Origin: Lentimicrobiaceae bacterium
GTDB lineage: Bacteria > Bacteroidota > Bacteroidia > Bacteroidales > F082
Length of the DNA stretch: 12,402 nucleotides
Assembly: GCA_031262365.1 (NCBI GenBank)
Contig: JAISHW010000067.1
Span: forward strand, 1-12,402
Direction: 5' to 3'
Within the stretch, counting starts at the first letter, position 1; every line of letters starts with the position of its first letter. The notes beneath the pieces were generated by a model. That model ran no database searches and was not told the origin of the DNA. It worked only from the letters and a program-made list of their open reading frames with translations. Shown in pieces: positions 1 to 12,402 of the stretch. Position numbers and translations under genes: made by a program.

Positions 1-314
1 AACGAGTTCTGCTACAAATTTAATAGACGATATTTCGGCGAATGCCTGTTTGATAGACTGATGGTGGCTGCCGTCAGCTACAAAAATCAATTTAGGTATA
101 ACGGCGGATAATCATTAATAGTTATTAACCCGACGTTCATTAAAACGTATTTTATTTACATATAATACGTTTATATTAAGCGAATTATGTTTCTTGATAT
201 TATCGATTAATTAACGTCTGGTTAATAAAAGAATATCCTTATCCGAAATTCGCAGGTAATTTCGGACATTAGATAAAGGTTTAAGTACAATACAATAAGA
301 GAAAAGACTGCACC

Positions 315-345
315 TTGAGCCGATTCAAAATATTAATCGGCTCAA
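315..345 (-). terminator. Hairpin (11-bp stem TTGAGCCGATT/AATCGGCTCAA, 9-nt loop) about 22 nt downstream of the GS stop; on the minus strand it is followed by a moderately T-rich stretch.
   Basis: Perfect inverted repeat read directly from the sequence, sitting 3' of the minus-strand GS gene (stop codon 367-369). Confidence 0.4.
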
Positions 346-366
346 AATATGTATAACTTTTCTATT

Positions 367-1872
367 TTATCCTATATAAAAGTATTTGCTTACCAATGCT
401 AAAATTTTGTTGGTGTCGGTTCCTAGTTCTTCGCGCAGATGTGTGTCATCATATTTACGCAAGTTAGCAATCAAGAAATCGAGAATATTTTCTGAGAACA
501 CGCCTCTTTCAAGATAAATCTGTTTGCTGCGTTCCAAAGCGTCAGCCGAGGCCACACAACTGCTCGGCAGTTGTTCCAATTCGCTTTGTTTTGCTTTGTT
601 TGCGGCTTCGAAAATATTGACAGCCACATACGTTTTTTCGGCTACATCGAGTCCGTTTTGCATTTCTAAGCCAATACGAGCACTGACCGTCAAACCGGCC
701 ATCAACAAGTAAACATCAGCCGAACAATCACTTGCACGCCATTCAACAGTTTGTTTTTGCGAGAAATCGTGTTTTAGATGCGGTTCTTGCGGATTCACTT
801 CCGAAATCATATCGGTAGCTTCGTTTGTCCAACCGAGCGGCACGCGAACCAAAACCGAGCGGTTGCTGTCGCCCCAACAAATATTTGTCGGAGCTTCTTG
901 ATGCGGCACCAAACGCAAATACGAAGTCGGATTGGTATTTCCAAAAGCTGTAAGCGAAGCTGCAAGGGTCATGTAACCCGCAATAACACGTTTTGCTACA
1001 TCGCTAAGTTTGCCGTTCTCAAGCATGACACTTTTACCGTTTTTCATTAATCGCGTGTGAATGTGCATACCACTACCGGCTTTTCCAACAGTGATTTTTG
1101 GTGCAAACGTAATCGTTATACCATATTGATACGCCAGCTGACGCATGATCCATTTTGCAACAACGAGCTGATCGGCAGCATCTTCTACATTTGTCGGTAA
1201 AAATTCGATTTCATTTTGTTCGTAAATTTTTCCTTCGTGTGTAAACGAACCTACTTCAGCATGTCCGTATTTTATCAATCCTCCTGCTTGTGCAATCAAA
1301 CGCATCGCTTCAGTACGGTATCCACCAAATTTATTAAATGGCGATGATTCGTGATAGCCTTTTTGGTTTACTGCCGGATACAATTCGTCTTCTTCGGCAA
1401 TGATATAATATTCTAATTCGCCCATTGTTTCGAAGCTATAGCCCGTGCTTTCGATCATGGCTTTGTGTGCTTTTTTCAAAATATATTCGGGTGAGCTTTC
1501 GAATGGTTTTCCATGACGGTTAAAGAACGAGCACAAAATATCAAGAGTGGGCGTTTCGGCAAACGGGTTTACAAAGGCGGTTTTATACTTCGGAACAACA
1601 TATAAATCGCTCGATCCGGTTTCAACAAATGGGAAAAGACTTGATCCGTCGACACGTTCGCCCGACGACAAAATATCGTCTAAATGTTCAATACTGTTAA
1701 TCACAAAGTTGAGTGTTTTCAACCGACCATCCCATCCGCAATAGCGGAAATTGATCATTTCGATATTGTTTTCTTTTACAAAACGAATCAAATCAGCTTT
1801 CGTAAACTGGTCGGTTGGTTTTTTCAGGTATTGTACCAGCAAGTTGGGATTCATCGCAATATTTTCATTCAT
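367..1872 (-). CDS. glnA: Glutamine synthetase (GlnA family, ~500 aa form).
   Basis: Translation contains the GS hallmarks GSGMHIHTRL (the G-G-H-H-S motif) and NPTSYLRLVPHQEAP (compare E. coli NSYKRLVPGYEAP), plus an N-terminal beta-grasp-like region. The ORF track starts at 1962 on a TTG; the first ATG (MNENIAMN...) is at 1870-1872 and matches the usual GS N-terminus, so I place the start there. Confidence 0.85.
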   Translation of the reverse strand: MNENIAMNPNLLVQYLKKPTDQFTKADLIRFVKENNIEMINFRYCGWDGRLKTLNFVINSIEHLDDILSSGERVDGSSLFPFVETGSSDLYVVPKYKTAFVNPFAETPTLDILCSFFNRHGKPFESSPEYILKKAHKAMIESTGYSFETMGELEYYIIAEEDELYPAVNQKGYHESSPFNKFGGYRTEAMRLIAQAGGLIKYGHAEVGSFTHEGKIYEQNEIEFLPTNVEDAADQLVVAKWIMRQLAYQYGITITFAPKITVGKAGSGMHIHTRLMKNGKSVMLENGKLSDVAKRVIAGYMTLAASLTAFGNTNPTSYLRLVPHQEAPTNICWGDSNRSVLVRVPLGWTNEATDMISEVNPQEPHLKHDFSQKQTVEWRASDCSADVYLLMAGLTVSARIGLEMQNGLDVAEKTYVAVNIFEAANKAKQSELEQLPSSCVASADALERSKQIYLERGVFSENILDFLIANLRKYDDTHLREELGTDTNKILALVSKYFYIG

Positions 1873-2026
1873 GTTGATTTCTCCTTGTATTTTTATGATT
1901 AAATGATGCTTTTTAAAGTTATTTTCAGTGCTTTTTAAGAGCACAATCGCTTGAGAACGCAAACATATAAAATATAGTTTGTCGTTTCAATGTTTCTTTC
2001 GTTTTGAAACGGTTTGTTTCGAAAAT

Positions 2027-3082
2027 TTAGAACTTTTTAATCACTGCTTCCGCAATTTTATCAAATGCTTGCGTAACAGGCGATTTTTCATCGAGAGCTA
2101 TAGGACTTCCTTTGTCGCCCGAAGCCGCAACGGCTTCGACCATCGGAATTTTTCCTATAAGCGGAATGCTTAATTCTTTGGCAAACTGCTCGCCATAACC
2201 CGTTCCGAAAATGTAATATTTTTTTTCAGGCATGTCTTCCGGTGTGAAATAAGCCATATTTTCGATTACGCCGAGCAATGGAATTTCGAGTTCTTTTGTT
2301 TTGAACATGCTTGCGGCACGTTTCACATCGGCAAGTGCCACTTTTTGAGGTGTCGTTACAATCACAGCACCTGATATTTTGTACACTTGCGCCAACGTAA
2401 GCTGAATATCGCCCGTTCCGGGCGGAAGATCGACAATCAGGTAATCGAGTTTTCCCCATAAACCGTCGCCAAGCAATTGATTTAAAGCACCCGTAGCCAT
2501 TGGTCCACGCCAGATCAAAGGTTGTTCGGGCGTTACAAAGAAACCGATTGATAATACTTTGACACCGTATTTTTCGATCGGAATAATAATTGGTTTTCCG
2601 CCTTGTTCAAACACTTCAGGTTTTGTCTCAACAAGATCGAACATCGTTGGAACAGATGGTCCGTAAATATCGGCATCGACGAGTCCTACTTTTTTGCCTG
2701 CCCGCGACAAAGCAATAGCCAAGTTGGCAGCTACGGTCGATTTGCCTACGCCGCCTTTCCCCGATGCAATAGCAATAATATGTTTCACTTCGTTCAGCGA
2801 AGGTGCACCTTTTGAGGCTTCCAAAACAGGTGTAATTTGTACGTCAAGGTTGTTGCCAAAAATTTCGCGTAGCGTTTTTGTTGCCGCATTGATAAGTATC
2901 TCTCGCGCTTTTTCGTTGTTCTTTGATAACACCAAATCGAAGCTAATGCTATTTTCCTGAATTTCAATATTTCCGACCATTCCAAGATCAATAATATTGT
3001 CGGAATCGTGGAACGATATGACGTTTCGGAGTGCTTCAATTACATTTAATTTCGTTAATTCCATATTCGTAAAATTTGCCAT
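2027..3082 (-). CDS. apbC: Mrp/ApbC/NBP35-family iron-sulfur cluster carrier ATPase with an N-terminal DUF59 (MIP18-like) domain.
   Basis: Deviant Walker A SGKGGVGKST, ParA/MinD-like fold motifs (DADIYGPS, DLPPGTGD) and an N-terminal ~90 aa DUF59-like segment. The start codon is ATG. Confidence 0.9.
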   Translation of the reverse strand: MANFTNMELTKLNVIEALRNVISFHDSDNIIDLGMVGNIEIQENSISFDLVLSKNNEKAREILINAATKTLREIFGNNLDVQITPVLEASKGAPSLNEVKHIIAIASGKGGVGKSTVAANLAIALSRAGKKVGLVDADIYGPSVPTMFDLVETKPEVFEQGGKPIIIPIEKYGVKVLSIGFFVTPEQPLIWRGPMATGALNQLLGDGLWGKLDYLIVDLPPGTGDIQLTLAQVYKISGAVIVTTPQKVALADVKRAASMFKTKELEIPLLGVIENMAYFTPEDMPEKKYYIFGTGYGEQFAKELSIPLIGKIPMVEAVAASGDKGSPIALDEKSPVTQAFDKIAEAVIKKF

Positions 3083-3119
3083 TTATCCTGTAAAAATAGG
3101 CTTTTCAAATGAATGTTTC

Positions 3120-3905
3120 TTAGCTTAACCTTAAAAATTCGAGGCAAGAAGTCATAAAGGCTTCGGGTTGGTCGACATGGAGCCAATGCGAGGCGTTTTC
3201 AATCGTTTTTAGTGTAACATTAGGAAAAAATTGTTTCAAAAAATCGAAATCGGATTGTTCAACGAAACCCGATGTTTCGGAGCGCAGACAAAGTGTGGGT
3301 TTTTCGTAACCGTTTGTTGGTTCTTTGGGGGCATTTAGGCGTAAAATATTTTCTTTCAATTGCTCTAAATTCGAACGCCACGCAAATGTTTTTTCTTTTG
3401 TTCGATACAAATTTTTCAGCAAAAAATTGCGCATTTTTTTCGTGTCGAGCTGTTCGGATAAAGTTTTTTCTATTTCGCTTATCGAATTGTATTTCGAAAG
3501 ATCGAGTTGTTGCATGATCCGAATCAAATCAAGGTGTTGATACAACTTCTTAAAAGGCGACAATGCCGTATCGGCAAGTATTAGTTTGCTTATTTTTTCC
3601 GGTTTTTCGAGAGCCATCAAAGCTGCTAATTTTCCGCCCATGCTATGTCCGAGTAAAATCGGCAATTCAAGTTTTTGATTTTCAATCAAGTTCCAGACAT
3701 CAGCCGCCATCACTTCGAAATTAAAAACATCGTTGTGAGGCGATCTTCCATGATTTCTAAGATCGGGAATAACAACGTAAAATCCGTTTTCGACAAATTG
3801 TTTGGCAAACGGAATCCAATTGTCGGAAATACCCAGTAAACCATGCAAAATAAGTATCACAGGTTGATTTTTAACGCCATACTCTCTAAAAAAAAGCTCG
3901 ACCAT
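3120..3905 (-). CDS. Alpha/beta-fold hydrolase (esterase, YbfF/MenH-like).
   Basis: HGLLGISDNW oxyanion-region motif, GHSMGG nucleophile elbow and a C-terminal His (ENASHW), in ~260 aa. The track start at 3911 is a TTG; the first ATG is at 3903-3905. Confidence 0.75.
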   Translation of the reverse strand: MVELFFREYGVKNQPVILILHGLLGISDNWIPFAKQFVENGFYVVIPDLRNHGRSPHNDVFNFEVMAADVWNLIENQKLELPILLGHSMGGKLAALMALEKPEKISKLILADTALSPFKKLYQHLDLIRIMQQLDLSKYNSISEIEKTLSEQLDTKKMRNFLLKNLYRTKEKTFAWRSNLEQLKENILRLNAPKEPTNGYEKPTLCLRSETSGFVEQSDFDFLKQFFPNVTLKTIENASHWLHVDQPEAFMTSCLEFLRLS

Positions 3906-3930
3906 CAGCAAGTTGAATTAGTTGATATTG

Positions 3931-3985
3931 AAAACTGTGAGTCATAAATATTTTCAGACTAAAAATATTTATGACTCACAGTTTT
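3931..3985. terminator. Perfect 24-bp inverted repeat (AAAACTGTGAGTCATAAATATTTT, 7-nt loop, then the reverse complement) in the intergenic region. It is a likely intrinsic terminator at the end of the four-gene block and is flanked by T-runs on both strands.
   Basis: Read directly from the sequence. The arms are 3931-3954 and 3962-3985 and are exact reverse complements. The element lies between the stop of the 4060..5253 gene and the start of the hydrolase gene. Confidence 0.55.
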
Positions 3986-4059
3986 ATGGATACTTTACAC
4001 CAAGCATTTTTGAGGCTATTCTCTATGTTTGATGTAAGTACTTCTTTTTTAGAAGTTTA

Positions 4060-5253
4060 TTATTTTCCTGCGGACTCTTTTTTTGCGGCTTGATTGTTTT
4101 TTATTTGTTGAATCATTAGCTTTGCCTTAGGAATTAAGTCGTAATTACGAATAAGTCCTGCGATGGTAGAATAAACCATTAAGAACATTGAAGTAATACA
4201 GATTACGACCAACGCAGCAGCAAGGAATGCAAATTTCATTGCATAAATCAGCATGCCGTTGTCATCTCTTGTTGTTGTGCCATCACTCCATTTGGTAACC
4301 GTTTCGGTAACCTGAAGTCCTGCTGCAACACTGGCAAGTCCGCCCGCAAGCATCAAACTCAGTTTTTTGATACCACCCAATACTTTGGCTTCGGTGCGGT
4401 AGCGACTCATCAAATAACCGAATGGACGTTCGGCAAAGATGTAAAGCGGAATGAGAATAATAAAAAATGCTGTCCAAAAATACAACGCACGATGGCTACC
4501 TTTGGCGTTATCTATCCACTCTTCTTTTTCTTTGATAGCCATTTTATGCACATCTTTGTTCGATGCCTTTTTTAAGTCAGCCAATTTTTCTTCATAGTCT
4601 TTCTTTCTTTTTTGAGAGTTTTTTAACCATTCTTGATACCTTTTTTTAACGTCTTTGTTTACAGCTGTATCAAGTACCGATTCGTTTCGTTTGATATCAT
4701 CACTTGCTCCTTTAATGTTGCTCTCAATGCTAGTAATCTGTCTTGTTTTGTAAGCGGCAATTGCCGAATCATTCCATTTTTCGATGGTGGTCAACTCTTT
4801 CTGATGGCGTTTCACGTTTTCTTCTGCATCGCCGGTTTGGTAATTTAAAAAGATGATGGAAACGATAACGCCGATGATAATCATCCACGAGAAATTCCAG
4901 TGGCGTTTACGAGACCAATCAATAATATCACGCATTTCAGACAAGTATGATTTAAGTTCACGGTCTGACTGATCGTCGATAGCATTTGTGGCTTGTGTAA
5001 CTAAAGCATCCATGCGCAATGTTTCGTCGAGCGAAGTTGGATAGATATCATCATCGTTGATTTCTCTTCCTTTTTTATTTTTTTTCTGAACATGCTTCGA
5101 AACGTTCGTTGCTTCGTAGAGCAGTTCATAAGCGCGTTGATTTTTTACGCCGCTTTCTTCTGCATTTTTAATGTCTTCTTTCGAAAAAGAGACATATCCC
5201 ATTTCTTTTGCTTTCTTTCCTTTAGGGATTTTTGCTTCTTTCTTTTTTGCCAT
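4060..5253 (-). CDS. Hypothetical membrane protein. It has a Lys-rich N-terminus (MAKKKEAKIPKGKKAK), long coiled-coil-like hydrophilic regions, one central TM segment and about three C-terminal TM segments.
   Basis: 397 aa ORF with an ATG start. Hydrophobic segments WMIIIGVIVSIIFLNY, ALYFWTAFFIILIPLYIF, LSLMLAGGLASVAAGL and FAFLAAALVVICITSMFLMVY. Last gene of the co-directional block, 53 bp downstream of the previous gene. Confidence 0.6.
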   Translation of the reverse strand: MAKKKEAKIPKGKKAKEMGYVSFSKEDIKNAEESGVKNQRAYELLYEATNVSKHVQKKNKKGREINDDDIYPTSLDETLRMDALVTQATNAIDDQSDRELKSYLSEMRDIIDWSRKRHWNFSWMIIIGVIVSIIFLNYQTGDAEENVKRHQKELTTIEKWNDSAIAAYKTRQITSIESNIKGASDDIKRNESVLDTAVNKDVKKRYQEWLKNSQKRKKDYEEKLADLKKASNKDVHKMAIKEKEEWIDNAKGSHRALYFWTAFFIILIPLYIFAERPFGYLMSRYRTEAKVLGGIKKLSLMLAGGLASVAAGLQVTETVTKWSDGTTTRDDNGMLIYAMKFAFLAAALVVICITSMFLMVYSTIAGLIRNYDLIPKAKLMIQQIKNNQAAKKESAGK

Positions 5254-5306
5254 AATGTAAAAGTTTTAAATCATTTAGTTTTTGTGAATGTTAATGTTAG
5301 GTAAAC

Positions 5307-7112
5307 TTATTTATTTTTAAATGAGTTAACGAGTTTATCGAGTGCATGTTTAAATTCGCGTGGATCGGAAGTGCGATCGGTCGAGTAGGAAAGTGTGTCG
5401 TTTGGGTTTTGATTTTGGTATTCGAATACGCTTTCGTCGGGCAGGTTGATCGAAATATCGCCAAAACTGAGTGTGTCTTCGGTCAAACGTACAGATTTGA
5501 TGTCGGAATAGAAAGCTGTTTCGGCTTCGCCAACTTCGAGTTTGTCTTCGTAGATACGCCAGTCGCTACGGAATACAGATACGTGCGTATCTTCCAAAAT
5601 TGCCACAACGTATTCGACTCCCGAATCGGCGTAATTTTCGCCGTCTTCGGCATATTTAAAGTAGTCGCTGATGAATAATGTTTTTCCCTCGAGGTCTTCT
5701 TCGTGTATGCCATGGTATTCGAATTCGGCATCGACAATGGTTGGCATGTATCGAAAAATAAAGTTTTCCATTTGCCGGTTTGTCGGTTTGGTGTTGTACA
5801 TTTCGATTTCGTAAGCATAGTTGTCGTTCAACATTTTGTTGTGAGCAGCGATATCGCTACGTTCTTTAGCGATGCCCGACAGTCGCGAAATGGTTGTCCA
5901 AATCCATATAATCAGCGGCAAGAAAAGCACGAGAGCCCAAATCAGACTTTGCCATTCTTTTTTGAAACCTAACACGGATAGTTGGTTTTTGTCTTTTCCT
6001 TTACCTTCTACTTTTGCAAGAATAAAGTGTTTTGCATAGAAGACACTGTCTTCGCGTGCTTGTTCGATGCTGTCGTTGTAAGTTTTTTTGTACTCAATTT
6101 CTCTTTCTTTTTTCGTAAAAGGTTTGCTTCGTATGCTTTCGTATTCGCTCAGCATTTCGGCTACGGTTTTATTTCCGATTGTTGTTTCCATTTCGCCGAT
6201 TCCTAATTTTGCAACGGTAAGAATGACGTAAAGAACGAGTGTAAGCAATACGGTGAGTATCAGTTTCCAGATGCGGTTTACAATAGGATAACCTGGTTTT
6301 TTGAGATACAAATATTCGGGAGGTAGCCGATTGTAGTCGGTTCCGGGTTTGATGGGTTTGAATCGGTAATCGAAAAATTGTTTGCGTTGTTCTGCTGTGA
6401 GATCCACGTATGCTTCGTCCTCTTCTTCTTGGTCAGTATCTTCATCATCATCTTCATCATCATCATCATCTTCTTCTCTATTTGTATCTACTTCATTCGC
6501 ACGACCTAAAACAATATCGAAACAATTCAGCGTTCGTTTCTCACGTATGGCGGCGTGTTCGAGAATTTCGTCCAAATCTTCCGGAAGGTAATCTTTTGCC
6601 ATATTGAATAAATCGTCAGCCGAGTCGCCTCTAACACGCAGTCCGTTAGCTGCATAATAGTCGTTTTTGATAGCGATGAGTAGCATGAGGTATTTGCATT
6701 TTGTCTCCATGCTAATGGCAGTTTTAAGATATTCTTCAATGCGGTCAATATCTTTTCCATCAAGTGTTTTGAGATTTTTTCCGCCGATGAGCGACAGTGC
6801 GTAGTAATAGTATACATCGGCATCAAGTGGCGACAGGTCGATGGCTTCTTTGAAGTTACGTTGCGCCAGTTCGTAGTTTTTCATGTTGAGGTACAAAAGT
6901 CCCATTGCGTAAAGTGCGTTGGTGTCTTTTGGGTTCTCTTTGGTTTTTTCCGAATAAAAATCGATGTATTCTTTTGCGATATTCGAGTCGATTTTCAACG
7001 GATTGCGTTTCGATTTGATGACATTTTGTGTTTTGCATCGCGAGCAAACGAGCGAGCCCGGTTTGAGTGGTGCACGACATCCGCCACATACTAATATTTC
7101 TAATTCAGCCAT
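5307..7112 (-). CDS. Multidomain protein: N-terminal C4 zinc ribbon (CGGC-x11-CSRC), TPR-like repeats, a poly-Asp/Glu tract (EEDDDDDEDDDEDTDQEEEDE), two TM segments and a ~190 aa C-terminal domain of unknown function.
   Basis: 601 aa ORF with an ATG start at 7110-7112 that directly abuts the upstream gene's TAA (TAAATG). Motifs were read from the translation. Confidence 0.65.
   Translation of the reverse strand: MAELEILVCGGCRAPLKPGSLVCSRCKTQNVIKSKRNPLKIDSNIAKEYIDFYSEKTKENPKDTNALYAMGLLYLNMKNYELAQRNFKEAIDLSPLDADVYYYYALSLIGGKNLKTLDGKDIDRIEEYLKTAISMETKCKYLMLLIAIKNDYYAANGLRVRGDSADDLFNMAKDYLPEDLDEILEHAAIREKRTLNCFDIVLGRANEVDTNREEDDDDDEDDDEDTDQEEEDEAYVDLTAEQRKQFFDYRFKPIKPGTDYNRLPPEYLYLKKPGYPIVNRIWKLILTVLLTLVLYVILTVAKLGIGEMETTIGNKTVAEMLSEYESIRSKPFTKKEREIEYKKTYNDSIEQAREDSVFYAKHFILAKVEGKGKDKNQLSVLGFKKEWQSLIWALVLFLPLIIWIWTTISRLSGIAKERSDIAAHNKMLNDNYAYEIEMYNTKPTNRQMENFIFRYMPTIVDAEFEYHGIHEEDLEGKTLFISDYFKYAEDGENYADSGVEYVVAILEDTHVSVFRSDWRIYEDKLEVGEAETAFYSDIKSVRLTEDTLSFGDISINLPDESVFEYQNQNPNDTLSYSTDRTSDPREFKHALDKLVNSFKNK
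6418..6478. repeat. Simple TCN/GAN trinucleotide-rich tract (tcttcatcatcatcttcatcatcatcatcatcttcttc) that encodes the poly-Asp/Glu run.
   Basis: Seen in the sequence. It is in frame with the 5307..7112 CDS. Confidence 0.5.
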
Positions 7113-7874
7113 TTAACTTCGGTTTATAGTTTTTAAAAATTCAATTTCTTTGATCGATGCGTCGACGAATTTTTTCACTTCGTTAGCAACAGCCGTGTTT
7201 GTTTCGTCGGTGCTGTTTTCGAATTTATCGACCAATGTTTCAGCTTTATCCAAAATGGTTTGTAGTTGATTTACCGTATCCGGATTGCGCAACACATTCG
7301 GTGTAATGGATTGAAAAGCGTTTGTCAGTCTATTAATATCCGAACGGTTTGCCGATTCGTCTTTGTACATGATGTTTTTTTCTTTGCTCAGCGATTCGTA
7401 ATGGTTTGCCAACGCCAACGATCTGCTTTTGAAAATGTTAATCGTATTTTTGTCGATCATAATCTGATCGGTATTTGCTTTGTGCTTGACATCAGTTTCG
7501 GCTAGTAAACCTCCAACAATAAGCCAAATTACAGTCAGAATGCTCAGAATCGAAATGTAATATTTCAGTGCCATTACATCCGAAAGTAACAGCGTATAAA
7601 TAAGCATGATAATCAATCCTGCAATGATGTAATAAAGCGCAAAAGGCCCCATGATTGAGTACATGGCTCCTGATGTATTATTTTTATCTGTACGGATAAA
7701 ATTGAAATAACCGAAAAAGATCAGTTCTAAGAGGCAGGTGTATCCGAGATTCAAATAAAATAAATCTTCGTTTTTTTCTTCGGGAGATAACAGAAAGAAT
7801 AATCCTATCGTAAGACCAATGGTAATCAATGGAATGAGTACTGCCGAGAAAAATGTAACTTGTTTCTTTGCCAT
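7113..7874 (-). CDS. Hypothetical membrane protein: four N-terminal TM helices followed by a ~120 aa coiled-coil-like cytoplasmic tail.
   Basis: 253 aa ORF with an ATG start. It lies 38 bp downstream of the SPFH gene, and its stop is immediately followed by the next gene's start codon. Hydrophobic helices VTFFSAVLIPLITIGLTIGLFFLL, LLELIFFGYFNF, FALYYIIAGLIIMLIYTLLL and ISILSILTVIWLIVGGLL. Confidence 0.6.
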   Translation of the reverse strand: MAKKQVTFFSAVLIPLITIGLTIGLFFLLSPEEKNEDLFYLNLGYTCLLELIFFGYFNFIRTDKNNTSGAMYSIMGPFALYYIIAGLIIMLIYTLLLSDVMALKYYISILSILTVIWLIVGGLLAETDVKHKANTDQIMIDKNTINIFKSRSLALANHYESLSKEKNIMYKDESANRSDINRLTNAFQSITPNVLRNPDTVNQLQTILDKAETLVDKFENSTDETNTAVANEVKKFVDASIKEIEFLKTINRS

Positions 7875-7912
7875 ATCAATAGTGTATTAATGGGTTAATA
7901 AATATGCGGTTT

Positions 7913-9136
7913 TTATAATCCTGGAGGCGGAGGTGGTGGCACCGCTGCAAATAATGATTGTAATTCGATACACTCGCCTGCTTTTGTCCATTGTGCCATG
8001 CCTTGTTTCCAAACATAAGTATCGCGAATAAGTTTATTTTCGCTTACAAGTTGTTTGAGCTTTTCCATATCGAATGGTCCTTGCTGCGCGCCTTCAATAA
8101 GTACGTGAAAAACAAGCGTTGTTGGTGGAGGTGGTGGCGTTGCCCGATTGCTTCCTGTGTTTAAGTTTGAAGTAATACCTCCCATTTGTGCTCCGAAAGC
8201 ACCTCCAAGTCCAAATCCCATTCCCATTCCTATGCCGGCTCCCATCAAGTCTGAAGAGCCCGATCCTTCGTTTCCTGCTGCCGATTCCAGAACGTCGAAC
8301 GAGCGTTGTTCTTGGTAAGTATAGCCTTCAATATCGCGTTGCATTTTGTTGGCTTCGGCTTGTAAAATTTGAGCGACACTAATCGCTTGTTGTTCGTTGA
8401 TTTTAATAACACCTGGATCGTTATCAGGATAAGATATCGATTCGACATAGAAATTCGTAACTTCAATGCCGTAACGCTCAAACTCTTCGATTACACGATT
8501 TTTACAAACATTCGATATTTCGTCGACCATAGTCGGAATTTCGATGATCGAAATTTGTTTTTTGTTGATGTAATTCGAAATCGTATCAGTGGTTTTTGTG
8601 ATGATAAGCGAACGGAATTGTGCTTCTACATCATCAGTATCAGCGGCATGTAGCGTGCCAACAAGCTCTTTTACAAAAGTGTACGCGTCTTTTATCCGAA
8701 CGCCGTATTCACCGTAAGCACTGACCGGAATAAATATTTTCCATTTTGGATCAGGTAGTTTTATCGGCGTTGCCGTTCCCCATCCAAGATTACGTTTTAC
8801 GGTTTTGTTTACGTACCAAATTTCGGCTGTAAATGGTGTTTCTTTTCCAAATGTAAGGTTGACTATTCGTTGCAATAAAGGAAGGTTATTAGCCGATAGT
8901 GTGTGTGTTCCCGGTCCGAAAACGTCGCAAACAGCACCTCCTTTTACAAAAATAGCTTCTTGACTTTCGTTAACAATCAATTGTGCGCCAATAGAAATAT
9001 TGTCGTAAGGATATTTCCAGACAAGATCATCGGCATAACCATTGTATTTTATTCGATCAATAGTCGAATTACGTTCTTCTCCTTGACCATCAAAAGTACG
9101 TCCTTCATCAGGACGTTTTCTACTAAAAATTCCCAT
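7913..9136 (-). CDS. SPFH/Band-7 family protein of the Band_7_1 type, with a C-terminal Gly/Met-rich low-complexity linker and a poly-Pro-flanked DUF4339 (GYF-like) domain.
   Basis: The N-terminal ~250 aa closely follow the Band_7_1 pattern (...VWKYPYDNISIGAQLIVNESQEAIFVKGGAVCDVFGPGTHTLSANNLPLL... compare ...RFPRYNNEIKYGAKLTVRESQAAVFV..GQLADVFGPGMYELTTQNLPVL... of YdjI-like proteins). The C-terminus reads PPPPPTTLVFHVLIEGAQQGPFDMEKLKQLVSENKLIRDTYVWKQGMAQWTKAGE...PPPPPPGL, typical of DUF4339. The start codon is ATG. Confidence 0.85.
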   Translation of the reverse strand: MGIFSRKRPDEGRTFDGQGEERNSTIDRIKYNGYADDLVWKYPYDNISIGAQLIVNESQEAIFVKGGAVCDVFGPGTHTLSANNLPLLQRIVNLTFGKETPFTAEIWYVNKTVKRNLGWGTATPIKLPDPKWKIFIPVSAYGEYGVRIKDAYTFVKELVGTLHAADTDDVEAQFRSLIITKTTDTISNYINKKQISIIEIPTMVDEISNVCKNRVIEEFERYGIEVTNFYVESISYPDNDPGVIKINEQQAISVAQILQAEANKMQRDIEGYTYQEQRSFDVLESAAGNEGSGSSDLMGAGIGMGMGFGLGGAFGAQMGGITSNLNTGSNRATPPPPPTTLVFHVLIEGAQQGPFDMEKLKQLVSENKLIRDTYVWKQGMAQWTKAGECIELQSLFAAVPPPPPPGL

Positions 9137-9341
9137 AGTCGTTTATGTTAAGTTTATTATTTAGTACTATTTCGTGTGTCTTTTCATTGTAGAAATTAGA
9201 ACGTCATAAAACATAAGCTAAAGTAGTGAATAACTTTATTTGGTTACCTGCTTTTTTTAAAAAAAATTTATCCCCAAAAATTCGATGTAAAATGCTTCTT
9301 GCAAAAAATATATTGTATTGATAATGAAATGTTTTTTGCAA

Positions 9342-9363
9342 AAAACAAATATACTTTTGCGCA
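9342..9363 (-). promoter_or_regulatory. Candidate Bacteroidetes-type -7 box (minus-strand TAtaTTTG, plus 9356-9363) immediately followed by a perfect 14-bp palindrome TTTTTTGCAAAAAA (9342-9355). A second TTGCAAAAAA copy lies at 9299-9308. This is a putative promoter/operator for the SPFH block.
   Basis: This is the only CAAAnnTA match on the plus strand (that is, TAnnTTTG on the minus strand) in the 466-bp leader. The palindrome was read directly. No clear -33 TTTG element was seen, and the implied 5' UTR is ~210 nt, so the call is tentative. Confidence 0.25.
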
Positions 9364-9458
9364 AGTAAAAGCCGGTAATTATTCGCTGTTTTAATACGGT
9401 CTTTGTTCAACATGTTACTTTTTTGTCTCGTAATAGTGATGCCAAGCCGTTATCACGA

Positions 9459-9794
9459 TTACGAAACAAAAAACATACAAGAATATTGCCAAACTTTTTT
9501 GGTGTTAAAATCCAAAATACCAATGCGCAACCGAGAGGTAGATGATAGCTCCGATAATGTCGGAGTTCGACTTTTGTATTGATTCGAGATTATTAAAAAA
9601 TTTTAATAACTTTGTAAATTATCGTTTGTTTCGTCGTGGGCGGCAGTGTCGGCAAGCGTTATCGGCATTAAATCCGATTTTGCTTTTATGCGCAAATTAC
9701 CCGACTGATAAACTTCCATAATTTTTGCAACGGCGCAGATTGCTGCATTTACCGCCGTTGCAAACAATTTTTTAAGACTTTCATTCCCAAGCAT
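9459..9794 (-). pseudogene. cysQ: Decayed cysQ/inositol-monophosphatase-family gene (3'(2'),5'-bisphosphate nucleotidase-like). The N-terminal 63 codons are intact and are followed by an in-frame TAA and an indel-ridden continuation.
   Basis: The ORF 9603..9794 encodes ...AVAKIMEVYQSGNLRIKAKSDLMPITLADTAAH..., which matches the CysQ/IMPase N-terminus (A.DAIMQVY...K.D.SPVT.AD..AH). Reading on in the same frame past the TAA gives ...RTPTLSEL...RIGILDFNTKKVW..., which resembles CysQ ...RTLTPDVPVLSEE...WLVDPLDGTKEF... and ends in further stops. The rest of a ~260 aa gene is missing. Confidence 0.45.
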
Positions 9795-9895
9795 ATTTAT
9801 TTAAACTCACCGCTTCGCACTGTTATATGATTTTCATTTTGTCCGTAAGTTGCGCTACGCTCGCTTCCGGTTATTAAAATTTCGCCCTTTCAGGG

Positions 9896-11170
9896 CTACG
9901 AGTTCAATTCAAAATTCAAAATTTCTTCAAAGCTTGTGTCTATTCCGTTCAGATAGTCATAAAAGTTATATTTTACTTTGATTTGCGGCTTTATTGTATT
10001 CAAATTTTCGTCAATAAATTTGAAATATTTTGTTGAATATTGAACGTAAATTTTTGAATTCGGAAGAGAAAAACCGCGTACTTCGCCGTAATGATTTGGT
10101 TTTCCTGCCGTTTCCTCGCCAACGCTTATTGCTTCGGTTTCGCGTTCAAAATCCAAAGTATTGATAATTGCCGACGAAAATGTTGAACGTCCGATAATTA
10201 CAAACAACTTTCCTTTGCGATTTACTTTTTTGTTCTTTTTCAATTGCTGCACAAATTCTGTTCCCTGAGCCGACGAGCCGCCGCCATTGCTTCGCATATC
10301 AAAAATAAAGCGTTTAATTGGCTTTTGCTCAATAGTTTGAAATATTTTTTCGGTAAATTCATTGAACGAAGGCAATTTTGCCGCGCGTGCGCTGTCGCCG
10401 TTTTCAAGCATAATTTCGCGACTTATGCACGAATTGTACTGAACGTAATAAACCGAATCCGTTTCAGAATAATTGTCCCAAAATATTTTGTTGGGATTTT
10501 GCAAAAAAAGTGGAATAGTAACAGGTTTAACTTTAACATATTCAGATTTATCCACACTCTCATTTAATTCAAAAGTTTCTTCAATTTTGCGATTTTCCGA
10601 ATCGACAAAGGAAATTGTCAGAGAATTGGATTTTTCGGGAATAAAACCGAAGAATTTAAAAATATCCGAATAGCTTAAAAGCATAGGTATCAGCAATTTA
10701 TTCATTGCTTTATTATCCTGTACGATTAACGTTTTCAAACTGTCGATAACCTGAGCAATGGGAAAATTGTTGATTGACGATATTTTGCAGCCCAAAGCCG
10801 ATTTGTGTTTTTCGGCAACGGAAACAACAAAAATTCCATCATCGAAAACAGTTGCAGTCAATGGAATAGAGCTATCATTAATCTCCGCAAAAAAATTGCA
10901 GTTTGTATGCGAATCGCCGATTTTTGCAAATATTTTTTGCAAATCCAAGGCAAATTTCCAAGAATCAGAGCCGTAATTTTTTGCAGCAAGTGCGTTGAGT
11001 TCGCGATTAAACTCGGTTTCGGAAATTTTGAAGAAAAGATTTTTATGTTTTTTCGGCAAATTTTCTCGTAAAAACTCAATATCTTCAACGTGTTTTTCAT
11101 TCTCATTTTGCGCTGTACAGTTCATTGAAATCAAGCAGCAGCAAGCAATAATCATAATTAATTTCTTCAT
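9896..11170 (-). CDS. Secreted S41-family peptidase (C-terminal processing/tail-specific protease-like) with an N-terminal signal peptide.
   Basis: Signal-peptide-like MKKLIMIIACCCLISMNCTAQ. S41 motifs FIFDMRSNGGGS (the DxRxNxGG motif) and VIIGRSTFSSA (catalytic Ser region). 424 aa, ATG start. Confidence 0.75.
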   Translation of the reverse strand: MKKLIMIIACCCLISMNCTAQNENEKHVEDIEFLRENLPKKHKNLFFKISETEFNRELNALAAKNYGSDSWKFALDLQKIFAKIGDSHTNCNFFAEINDSSIPLTATVFDDGIFVVSVAEKHKSALGCKISSINNFPIAQVIDSLKTLIVQDNKAMNKLLIPMLLSYSDIFKFFGFIPEKSNSLTISFVDSENRKIEETFELNESVDKSEYVKVKPVTIPLFLQNPNKIFWDNYSETDSVYYVQYNSCISREIMLENGDSARAAKLPSFNEFTEKIFQTIEQKPIKRFIFDMRSNGGGSSAQGTEFVQQLKKNKKVNRKGKLFVIIGRSTFSSAIINTLDFERETEAISVGEETAGKPNHYGEVRGFSLPNSKIYVQYSTKYFKFIDENLNTIKPQIKVKYNFYDYLNGIDTSFEEILNFELNS

Positions 11171-11362
11171 ATTCTAAACTGTTAATTGTTCATACTATAC
11201 ATAGAACGTAAAAAAAACGAATTTGCTACATTTGGTTAATTCAGTAGTCAGTAATTATTATTTGTACGGACTACCGAATACTGATTACATTTTATTTCCG
11301 ACAAAACAATAAGCCATAAAAACATCGGAATCGCCGGCGACTTCTCGACCAAATAAAAAATT

Positions 11363-12230
11363 CTAAAAACTTTTCAAATCAATCCCACCAAAAAAAGCAA
11401 ATCCTTTGATTATAAGTATTTTGTCGTGATTTGGCGAAGTGCCGCCCTTGATCACACGGCTATCGTCATAGCCGCCGAAAATAGAAGTAACTTCCGATTT
11501 CACCGTCCAGTCGTCAGGAACGATCAGTGTGATACCTCCAAAAATTGCTGTATTGTCAAGAATTATGCCTCCTGAAGCAAGTTTCACATGATGCATGTTG
11601 ATGTTTATTCCACCAAAAATAGCCGTCAACTTTCCGCCTAAAAATCGATCGGAAAAAAGTTTGATTGTTTTTCCGCTAAAGACAACCGTTTCGTCTATGA
11701 AATTGCCCGAAAACATGTTTGCGTCGTTATATGATTGGTATTCGTCGCGCTCGAATTCCGTTTTTTCTTTTTTCTTTTGCGATTCATTTACTTCTTCATA
11801 ATCCGTAAATTCGTTTTCCGGTTGGTTATCGTTTTTTGGTTGTTCATTCGATTTTTGATCACCATATTTTTTAAAATCACGCCTACTATTCTGATCGACA
11901 GGCGATTTTCTTTTTGCAATCAACAAAATTCCGATAAAAATAAGAAGTGCCGGAAAGAAAATCTGACGAAAATGGATTCTGAAATTAAAAAACTCCGGAA
12001 GCCAAAAAAGAATTCCTGCGCCAATTAAAACCAATCCCGTTACTCTGTTGTTGGGATTTGCCACCACAACCAACCCGATGATAATGAGGATTGTCTTCCA
12101 TGAAAAGATGTAGTAACTTATATTAAATGTAAAGAAATCAAATAAATTCAAAAAATATAAGACTCCTATTCCGATAAAAATAAGACCAATAATGATTTTA
12201 CGATCCATCGATGTTTTTTCTATTGCCATG
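11363..12230 (-). CDS. LiaF-like protein: an N-terminal 4-TM domain of the LiaI-LiaF-TM type and a C-terminal toast-rack (DUF2154/DUF4097-like) domain with repeated IFGG strands.
   Basis: The C-terminal ~110 aa contain the reiterated motifs LTAIFGGININ / TAIFGGITLIV / TSIFGGYDD / FAFFGGIDL, characteristic of the LiaF C-terminal domain. The N-terminus has four hydrophobic helices. The track start at 12268 is a TTG; the first ATG (MAIEK) is at 12228-12230. Confidence 0.6.
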
Positions 12231-12402
12231 ATCAATTGTATGAAATGAATAACTTGTTTGAAGTGCAAAATTACATTAATTAAAGGGAACTTCTAAAAAT
12301 CCCAATCTCTGCGTTACGCTTCTTCAACAAAATGCTCATTTACGCCAAGTAAACTCCGCTTTTGTTTCAGTCGCAAGCCTTGATATTGAAATTTTTAGAA
12401 GT

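Follow-up and report, generated by a model that had tools for sequence, protein, structure and literature searches.

SPFH proteins occur in all domains of life, and few of the bacterial ones possess defined partners. The classical bacterial systems with dedicated membrane partners are the SPFH-NfeD pairs and HflK/C-FtsH. For the YdjI class (Band_7_1, COG4260) only the system of Bacillus subtilis has been studied so far. There, the SPFH protein YdjI (SamI) is soluble and is recruited by two membrane proteins, YdjG, which possesses zinc ribbons, and YdjH (PMC8581546); the latter carries a TPM domain, and the recruitment of YdjI by its membrane partners is likewise reported in PMC11237479. SamI in turn restrains SamGH signaling (bioRxiv 10.64898/2026.02.06.704340). 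The combination of an SPFH and a GYF domain with flanking poly-Pro was already described in 2007, and bacterial GYF domains with Pro-rich flanks were proposed to bind each other (PMC2034487). The present study concerns a compact block of four genes in a Lentimicrobiaceae bacterium (assembly GCA_031262365.1, contig JAISHW010000067.1), which is led by an SPFH gene and lies within positions 1-12,402 of the contig; this whole 12,402-nucleotide (nt) stretch is referred to as the window.

The four proteins are called A, B, C, and D, and the two modules of C are called c and U, these labels being those of the present analysis. The reading that we prefer, with a confidence slightly better than even, is that the block specifies a membrane-anchored scaffold complex of the YdjI/SamI class coupled to a membrane sensor/adaptor formed by c and U. 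This would provide the YdjI class with a conserved partner set (B, c, and U) in the dominant gut phylum, including the cultivable and genetically workable genera Bacteroides and Prevotella.

The SPFH protein and the A-B-C core

Protein A matches Pfam Band_7_1 (PF13421) between amino acid residues (aa) 39 and 239 with an E-value of 1.6e-50 (172.1 bits against a gathering cut-off of 24), and GYF_2 (PF14237, formerly DUF4339) at 1.5e-16. This is congruent with the initial annotation, made from the sequence alone, in which the first protein was called a Band_7_1/SPFH member with a DUF4339 domain; the Gly/Met-rich segment (aa 291-320) and the poly-Pro stretches said to bracket DUF4339 are also found. 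Hydropathy analysis reveals no transmembrane (TM) segment in A (no hydrophobic window ≥1.6), which leaves it without an N-terminal anchor, in contrast to flotillins and HflK/C. In place of the zinc-ribbon tail of YdjI, which is not present in A, there is the GYF_2 domain with poly-Pro. The GYF region matches PDB entry 7z3c (GltJ; phmmer, 4e-6), and the NCBIfam model for GltJ gives a local match limited to a single domain (1.7e-6; 27 bits against a family cut-off of 450). Alignment of the A-family tails reveals invariant Pro columns.

The Gly/Met-rich linker (“MMGAGMGLGMG”) is kept in all Band_7_1 relatives retrieved, whatever the C-terminal tail that follows it, which is GYF_2 in Bacteroidales, multiple zinc ribbons as in YdjI, or, in one case, SHOCT. 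In three loci (L067, L069, and L118) the Band_7_1 protein is zinc-ribbon-tailed, yet B, c, and U are still present. As judged from these sequences, the SPFH tail is a swappable adaptor, for which GYF, zinc-ribbon, and SHOCT versions are found. The SHOCT example is a 362-aa A-family open reading frame (ORF) at L117, where the domain (PF09851, 9.5e-8) follows a Gly/Met- and Gln-rich linker.

Protein B possesses three strong and one weaker hydrophobic segments by hydropathy, followed by a 128-aa tail; no family for it is found in Pfam, NCBIfam, PADLOC, or PHROGs. A B-family gene lies directly 3′ of the SPFH gene in essentially all loci, both in the genomes and in a metagenome scan. A word-indexed homologue search with B returned three matches only, and tblastn finds B adjoining A everywhere. 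The C family is rare, with 37 matches among 5.8 billion clusters and 37 loci among 185,579 species genomes. By record title, all but three of these loci are from Bacteroidales (Paludibacteraceae, Rikenellaceae, and Prevotellaceae); the exceptions are titled Erysipelotrichaceae, Acutalibacteraceae, and Segatella copri, two of which, if the titles are correct, lie outside the Bacteroidales. In every one of the 37 loci where the contig permits the check, A and B stand immediately upstream of C, a synteny which thus extends over dozens of genomes, and the genes flanking A-B-C vary from locus to locus, being mostly housekeeping genes.

Protein D had been described as a Lys-rich coiled-coil protein with C-terminal TM segments; the C-terminal segments are there, but a TM segment also precedes the coiled coil. 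No family for D is found in Pfam, NCBIfam, or PHROGs, nor a significant one in PADLOC. The gene is present in 23 of the 37 genome loci. In 10 it comes after C, and in 13 it is inserted between B and C, with a 29-nt overlap of its stop and the start of C; at L006 it is found on both sides of the block. The D family, with at least 100 clusters, is far larger than the C family, and its members are often solitary beside unrelated genes. The conserved core of the operon is A-B-C, since the position of D is variable and D is often solitary elsewhere, and D is a frequent but facultative member. The synteny of the quartet, the absence of which would have refuted the initial idea, holds strongly for three of its genes and for D in those 23 loci only.

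One could go further and suppose that the quartet is not one system, A-B-C being the unit and D an unrelated membrane protein which shares the transcript in some lineages. We regard this as a serious possibility, although somewhat short of even. Solitary D homologues lie beside unrelated neighbors at L044, L045, and L047, and D is missing from about nine A-B-C loci with enough flank to judge, as well as from all 31 loci of the unfused (c-type) operon described below. Such repeated, order-shuffled linkage (B-D-C with the 29-nt overlap in 13 loci, after C in 10, and on both sides in L006) would, however, be unusual for a passenger, and there is no terminator in the C-D gap of the window. At L002/L003 (12017-21758) the slot which D occupies in A-B-C-D loci is taken by mobile genes: a tyrosine integrase, AAA_25/primase-like genes, and a type I restriction-modification system, which start 258 nt after C and suggest that a mobile element integrated at the 3′-end of the operon.

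Protein C and the c-U module

Protein C contains a CxxC...CxxC motif (C9/C12/C23/C26), one Pfam TPR match, and two TM segments, and its AlphaFold2 (AF2) model has a predicted local distance difference test (pLDDT) score of 82.9. Searched as profiles against PDB sequences, the C and D families gave generic TPR and coiled-coil matches only. Residues 1-201 match the family of stand-alone c proteins with an hhalign probability of 100% (E=2.5e-41). Residues 441-560 match the U family at 79.6% (E=1.5e-5), and C matches the U protein of L129 at 48.7% (E=1.8e-4); BLASTP of C against U is not significant, and profile-profile comparison was needed here. These alignments support the view that C is a fusion of c and U, which are separate genes in an operon of Bacteroides and Prevotella. 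The architecture and the predicted topology agree with this, and so does the adjacency of c and U in other loci. U has a single N-terminal TM segment followed by positive residues, so that its N-terminus would lie outside; to join a cytosolic c to U in one chain, exactly one extra TM segment would be needed, and C has one, namely TM1 with its loop.

The features for which C had been singled out, that is, a 601-aa protein with a zinc ribbon, TPR, a polyacidic tract, and two TM segments, are thus all present, but they appear to belong to two fused proteins. The acidic tract (EEDDDDDEDDDEDTDQEEEDE) would be a clade-specific linker at their junction: the AF2 pLDDT falls below 50 at aa 211-223, and in the alignment the corresponding region of other C proteins varies by clade or is replaced by a second zinc ribbon.

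The unfused counterpart emerged from a metagenome scan, which was seeded with an alignment of A proteins and followed by tblastn on the matches and ORF clustering. Here, B again adjoins A, and after B comes either C or a short c gene; in many of the loci this is a gene of about 195 aa, which matches only the first third of C. In Bacteroides and Prevotella the order is U-YidD-like-A-B-c, where U, about 228 aa long, carries a TM segment at its N-terminus and a beta-rich domain with a terminal basic helix, and is without a family in the profile libraries (Pfam, NCBIfam, PADLOC, and PHROGs). Exact-sequence look-up assigns the proteins to Bacteroides finegoldii, “MULTISPECIES Bacteroides,” and Prevotella, where their annotation goes no further than “SPFH domain-containing protein,” “zinc ribbon domain-containing protein,” or “hypothetical.” The operon is found on at least 1000 Bacteroides contigs, and its neighbors in Bacteroides are the housekeeping genes obg, adk, and hpt. 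In four loci (L067, L069, L098, and L118) the order is A-B-c-U, with c and U adjacent. From these comparisons the operon of the window appears to be a lineage-specific rearrangement of one which is common in gut Bacteroides and Prevotella. The suggestion of a unique four-gene system does not survive, given the facultative nature of D and the wide occurrence of the unfused operon; what does stand is that the partner set is undescribed as far as the literature searched reveals. The SPFH+GYF architecture (PMC2034487) and the YdjI class with its dependence on membrane partners are known; no description was found of the B/c/U partners, of c fused to U, or of c-U being shared with TIR and CHAT proteins, nor a published operon name, and nothing was found on the Band_7_1-B-c-U operon in Bacteroides.

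The c-U pair also recurs outside SPFH operons. A search of the C-family hidden Markov model (HMM) against 1.84 billion representative proteins yielded approximately 20 full-length fused clusters, more than 100 short c-type proteins, and about two dozen longer proteins with the whole c-type TPR module at the C-terminus (profile positions ~40-200, E-values of 1e-17 to 1e-35). When 18 of these longer proteins were examined with Pfam, six matched TIR_2, eight CHAT, and one Band_7_1, while three matched nothing. The likeness of the module goes, by its sequence, well beyond that of generic TPR repeats, as typified by the motif DVYYYYALSL...IEEYL.TAI...KY..L.AI..DYY.ANGL, common to C of the window and the TIR protein P0289. 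In the three contexts examined (TIR-c, CHAT-c, and a fusion of Band_7_1 directly to zinc ribbon-c, P0397/P0402) the next gene downstream is in each case a member of the U family (Table 1). The c~U and SPFH~c fusions are independent of each other and tie SPFH, c, and U together; such fusions predict which proteins touch. All of this indicates at the sequence level that the c-U pair is a module of its own.

At L129 (8001-9829) the TIR-c/U pair is situated between UPF0175/DUF3368 and DUF2281/PIN toxin-antitoxin pairs, and at L128 (8001-10553) the CHAT-c/U pair adjoins a 1003-aa TPR-CHAT protein, a caspase-like Peptidase_C14 protein, and an extracytoplasmic function (ECF) sigma/anti-sigma pair. 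At L130 (6001-11273) three genes come after that for the 420-aa Band_7_1~zinc ribbon~c protein. Their products are a membrane protein of 868 aa, the C-terminus of which is U-like, a U-family member of 244 aa, and a TM protein of 201 aa which has a helical tail; this cluster lies just upstream of spoIIAA/spoIIAB/sigF-like genes on a Firmicutes-like contig.

TIR and CHAT proteins with C-terminal TPR modules are known in conflict systems, such as the Thoeris-type TIR proteins and the TPR-CHAT proteases. The idea of a phage-defence or abortive-infection module, raised in the initial annotation, received no direct support; it has gained an indirect lead because c-U also occurs with TIR and CHAT. 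In a membrane-based immunity or abortive infection system of this type, c-U would sense infection or membrane damage and drive an effector, TIR or CHAT elsewhere and SPFH/B, perhaps with D, in the window. The position of the full-length module C-terminal to TIR_2 in 6 and to CHAT in 8 of the 18 proteins, the U-family gene directly downstream of TIR-c and CHAT-c (hhalign 99.6% and 99.0%), and the placement of one pair between two toxin-antitoxin pairs and of the other beside a TPR-CHAT protein and a caspase-like peptidase are in its favor. The four proteins themselves, however, have no significant match in PADLOC-DB 2.0 (the only one being that of D to a DRT/SLATT model at E=0.019, 12.8 bits) and none in PHROGs, and C was found neither in 50,697 phage records nor in IMG/VR. 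The unfused operon, moreover, is carried on those 1000 or more Bacteroides contigs (“MULTISPECIES”) and in Prevotella, next to obg, adk, and hpt in the former; the flanks of the 37 genome loci are mostly housekeeping; and SPFH itself is not a known effector. We consider a defence function unlikely.

A broader version of this idea, to which we likewise assign a low probability, is that c-U constitutes a hitherto unrecognized, cross-phylum membrane sensor cassette, wired to TIR NADases, CHAT proteases, or Band_7_1 SPFH proteins. In that case the operon of the window would represent the form with SPFH output within a family for membrane surveillance or immunity, with SPFH/B, and D where present, acting as the effector or damage-containment arm, and some lineages would additionally tether L7/L12 C-terminal domains (CTDs) and EF-Tu-like domains. 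Whichever applies, the sharing of c-U with TIR and CHAT proteins offers a concrete, testable link of SPFH scaffolds to stress or immune signaling.

Sibling loci, transcription, and flanking genes

The sibling loci carry further genes which point in another direction, that of translation and membrane insertion. A YidD-like gene of about 140 aa, with an N-terminal TM extension and Pfam YidD matches of 2.3e-16 and 1.1e-12, is found directly upstream of the SPFH gene in 27 unfused loci (L049, 5555-5980, and 26 others); at this length it is about twice the 67 positions of the Pfam YidD model. Neither the window nor any of the fused-C loci contains it. Small proteins which join an N-terminal TM segment to a Ribosomal_L12 CTD are encoded in Band_7_1 operons at L014 (2647-3735), L005 (4811-5194), and L106 (5491-6434) (Pfam, 3.8e-10 to 3.8e-24), i.e., both in Bacteroidales and in the distant L106, which has cdaA-like neighbors. 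At L031 (5995-7332), and also at L043, a gene between those for A and B encodes a 445-aa protein, in which a TM segment at the N-terminus is combined with an EF-Tu GTPase domain (PF00009, 6e-30) and with L12/ClpS-like repeats at the C-terminus.

These genes raise the prospect of a membrane-protein biogenesis or quality-control platform, in which the SPFH ring would organize a microdomain for contacts with ribosomes or translation factors and for insertion helpers. The dedicated YidD paralogue of the unfused operon, the insertion of TM-anchored L12-CTD (3.8e-10) and EF-Tu GTPase domain proteins in sibling loci, and the recurrence of L12-CTD proteins in the distant, zinc-ribbon-tailed L106 (4.7e-13 and 3.8e-24) would all fit, as would the report that loss of SamI in B. 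subtilis lowers translation. Yet none of the YidD-like, L12-CTD, or EF-Tu genes is present in the window, and the associations are those of gene context. The L12-CTD/ClpS-like fold is, furthermore, a general protein-binding module, and the function of YidD itself is poorly defined. A role of this kind appears quite improbable for the present operon.

In the window, the four co-directional ORFs are separated by 38 nt (A-B), 0 nt (B-C, a TAAATG junction), and 53 nt (C-D), exactly as first described (Table 1). The hairpin which follows D consists of 24 perfect Watson-Crick pairs, one G-U, and one A-U, with a 3-nt loop; its energy is -31.4 kcal/mol (z = -10.4), and none of 200 shuffled sequences was as stable. 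The AT-rich leader and the 24-bp perfect hairpin noted at the outset are thus both genuine features. The A-B and C-D gaps exhibit structure at chance level (z = -0.06 and +1.44 against shuffled sequence), and promoters of the sigma-70 type are not above chance over the region (12 matches against 16.5 expected from shuffles). With unstructured internal gaps, promoter matches at chance, and a strong terminator-like hairpin after D, the simplest reading is that A-B-C-D is a single transcription unit, as predicted, and the compact unit led by a Band_7_1/DUF4339 SPFH protein is borne out at this level. Upstream of A, only the -7-like box TATATTTG of a canonical Bacteroidetes promoter (-33 TTTG with -7 TAnnTTTG) was found, and this candidate is graded weak because the -33 TTTG is missing.

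Table 1. Features of the four-gene block in the window, and U-family genes downstream of c-bearing proteins in other loci
Feature	Position	Strand	Length or basis
Gene A	7913-9136	minus	ORF, 407 aa
SPFH/Band_7_1 domain of A (aa 39-239)	8420-9022	minus	Pfam
Gly/Met-rich low-complexity linker of A (aa 291-320)	8177-8266	minus	sequence composition
Tail of A: poly-Pro (aa 334-338), GYF_2 (aa 344-392), poly-Pro (aa 400-405)	7922-8137	minus	Pfam, composition
Gene B	7113-7874	minus	ORF, 253 aa
B: predicted 4-TM protein with ~128-aa helical (coiled-coil-like) tail, placed as cytoplasmic	7113-7874	minus	hydropathy
Gene C	5307-7112	minus	ORF, 601 aa
C: c module, acidic linker, TM1, periplasmic alpha/beta loop, TM2, U-like domain	5307-7112	minus	AF2, hhalign, alignment
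c module of C (aa 1-201): zinc ribbon (aa 9-26, nt 7035-7088) and distinctive TPR-like helical module	6510-7112	minus	
Poly-D/E tract of C (aa 213-233): low-confidence clade-specific linker at the c/U junction	6414-6476	minus	
TM1 (aa 277-301), predicted periplasmic loop (aa 302-386), and TM2 (aa 387-408) of C	5889-6284	minus	hydropathy, AF2
U-like C-terminal domain of C (aa 441-600): helices, 7-strand beta-rich domain, terminal helix	5313-5792	minus	hhalign, AF2
Gene D	4060-5253	minus	ORF, 397 aa
D: Lys-rich N-terminal domain, TM1, ~115-aa helical bundle, three further TM helices; facultative member	4060-5253	minus	
AT-rich intergenic region/leader 5′ of A	9137-9895	minus	759 nt; GC 28-32% vs ~40% in genes
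Short ORF in leader	9603-9794	minus	63 aa
Short ORF in leader	9204-9413	minus	69 aa
Candidate Bacteroidetes-type -7 box, ~210 nt upstream of the A start codon	9346-9353	minus	pattern scan, motif match only
Intrinsic-terminator-like hairpin closing the unit	3931-3985	minus	A-tract and U-tract flank the stem
TIR-c protein, L129: next gene downstream vs U family			hhalign 99.6%, E=5.6e-24
CHAT-c protein, L128: next gene downstream vs U family			hhalign 99.0%, E=2.4e-18
Band_7_1~zinc ribbon-c fusion, L130: downstream gene vs U family			hhalign 99.0%, E=7.2e-18

Pfam finds nothing for either of the short ORFs in the leader. On visual inspection, that of 63 aa is similar to the N-terminal part of an inositol-monophosphatase/CysQ-type protein, and it may be a gene remnant. 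A LiaF-like protein, a member of the Psp/Lia envelope-stress network, is encoded on the minus strand at 11363-12268, 2.2 kb upstream of A (Pfam LiaF-TM, 1.9e-16; LiaI-LiaF-like_TM1, 4.1e-10; LiaF-like_C, 4.9e-5). Its closeness to A is probably a coincidence; the LiaF-like and S41-peptidase-like upstream genes were considered as members of the unit and rejected, being beside A in no other locus. Elsewhere, a pair of upstream genes recurs at L012 (2901-4762) and 13 other loci, including L004, L017-L021, L024, L026, L029, L033, L035, and L041. In the product of the first, which is about 470 aa long, a signal/TPR region and a coiled coil are combined with a TM segment and, at the C-terminus, a helix-turn-helix (HTH; weak Sigma70_r4_2 match); the second is a 105-aa HTH-only paralogue. 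The two may together form a membrane-bound regulator dedicated to the fused-type operon; neither the TPR-TM-HTH protein nor its short paralogue is encoded in the window.

Proposed function and comparison with known systems

In the scaffold model preferred here, A, which has no TM segment, would oligomerize on the cytoplasmic face of the inner membrane, where B, through its four TM segments and cytoplasmic helical tail, and C would hold it. C would unite in one chain c, a cytosolic zinc-ribbon/TPR adaptor, and U, a protein with a beta-rich domain tethered to the membrane. Together, c and U are most likely a sensor/adaptor of membrane state, possibly in envelope stress, with the SPFH protein as its output or brake; this mirrors B. 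subtilis, where SamG/SamH recruit, and are restrained by, SamI. The GYF_2 domain and the flanking poly-Pro probably mediate self- or partner association, and D would be an optional fourth membrane subunit.

Several points weigh against this model. The window lacks the features which define ydjGHI: no ORF in it matches PspA_IM30 in Pfam, and no pspA is nearby, as had been remarked at the outset; none of B, C, or D matches TPM_phosphatase at E≤1; and Pfam reveals no NTF2-like domain, such as that of YdjG, in any of these three, though no domain-wise fold search of the AF2 model of C was made. Nor is the YdjG-type architecture matched, as C has one zinc ribbon, a TPR module, and two TM segments. 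The homology of C to U is only moderately backed (79.6% and 48.7%), and the operon family is known here from sequence alone. Elsewhere, TIR and CHAT domains are coupled to this dyad of c and U, a pattern which fits conflict systems better than housekeeping stress, and the YidD-like, TM-anchored L7/L12-CTD, and EF-Tu proteins of sibling loci point to translation or insertion, which a scaffold leaves unexplained. The operon nevertheless probably works in a similar manner to ydjGHI.

Among the classical SPFH systems, the SPFH-NfeD pairs and HflK/C-FtsH resemble the operon in that an SPFH scaffold is encoded together with one or more dedicated membrane partners. They differ in that A has no TM anchor and belongs to another SPFH subfamily, Band_7_1; the window encodes neither an NfeD nor an FtsH partner (Pfam; no NfeD match in B, C, or D). 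The GltJ zinc ribbon-GYF switch of the Myxococcus gliding machinery (PDB 7z3c) shares the GYF_2 domain and the occurrence of a zinc ribbon and a GYF domain in one membrane-associated system. In the window, however, the two reside on separate proteins, there are no other gliding-motility genes, and the match is confined to one domain. bPH models of Pfam match none of the four proteins. The TIR and CHAT conflict proteins have in common with the operon the c-type TPR module and the downstream U partner gene; by comparison, no enzymatic effector, whether TIR, CHAT, or another, is encoded in the window, whose c module carries a zinc ribbon only and is linked to an SPFH scaffold.

The closest relative by gene content is the unfused operon of Bacteroides and Prevotella, in which A (~50% identity) and B are orthologous, c corresponds to the N-terminal 200 aa of C, and U resembles its C-terminal domain. 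What distinguishes the window is that c and U are joined through the acidic linker, an extra TM segment, and a periplasmic loop, that the YidD-like gene is missing, and that D is appended.

Among characterized systems, YdjI is the nearest relative, as the initial annotation proposed. Both the window and B. subtilis pspA-ydjGHI (samGHI) encode a soluble SPFH protein of the Band_7_1 class, equipped with a low-complexity linker and with an adaptor at its C-terminus, together with a zinc-ribbon membrane protein and a second membrane protein (PMC8581546; PMC11237479). The partners differ, as had also been anticipated. In addition to the missing pspA, the SPFH tail in the window is GYF_2 and not a zinc ribbon. 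YdjG (two zinc ribbons, an NTF2-like domain, and a TM segment) and YdjH (TPM) stand against B (four TM segments and a helical tail) and c-U (zinc ribbon-TPR plus a TM/beta-rich domain), and the gene order is reversed, with the SPFH gene coming first in the window.

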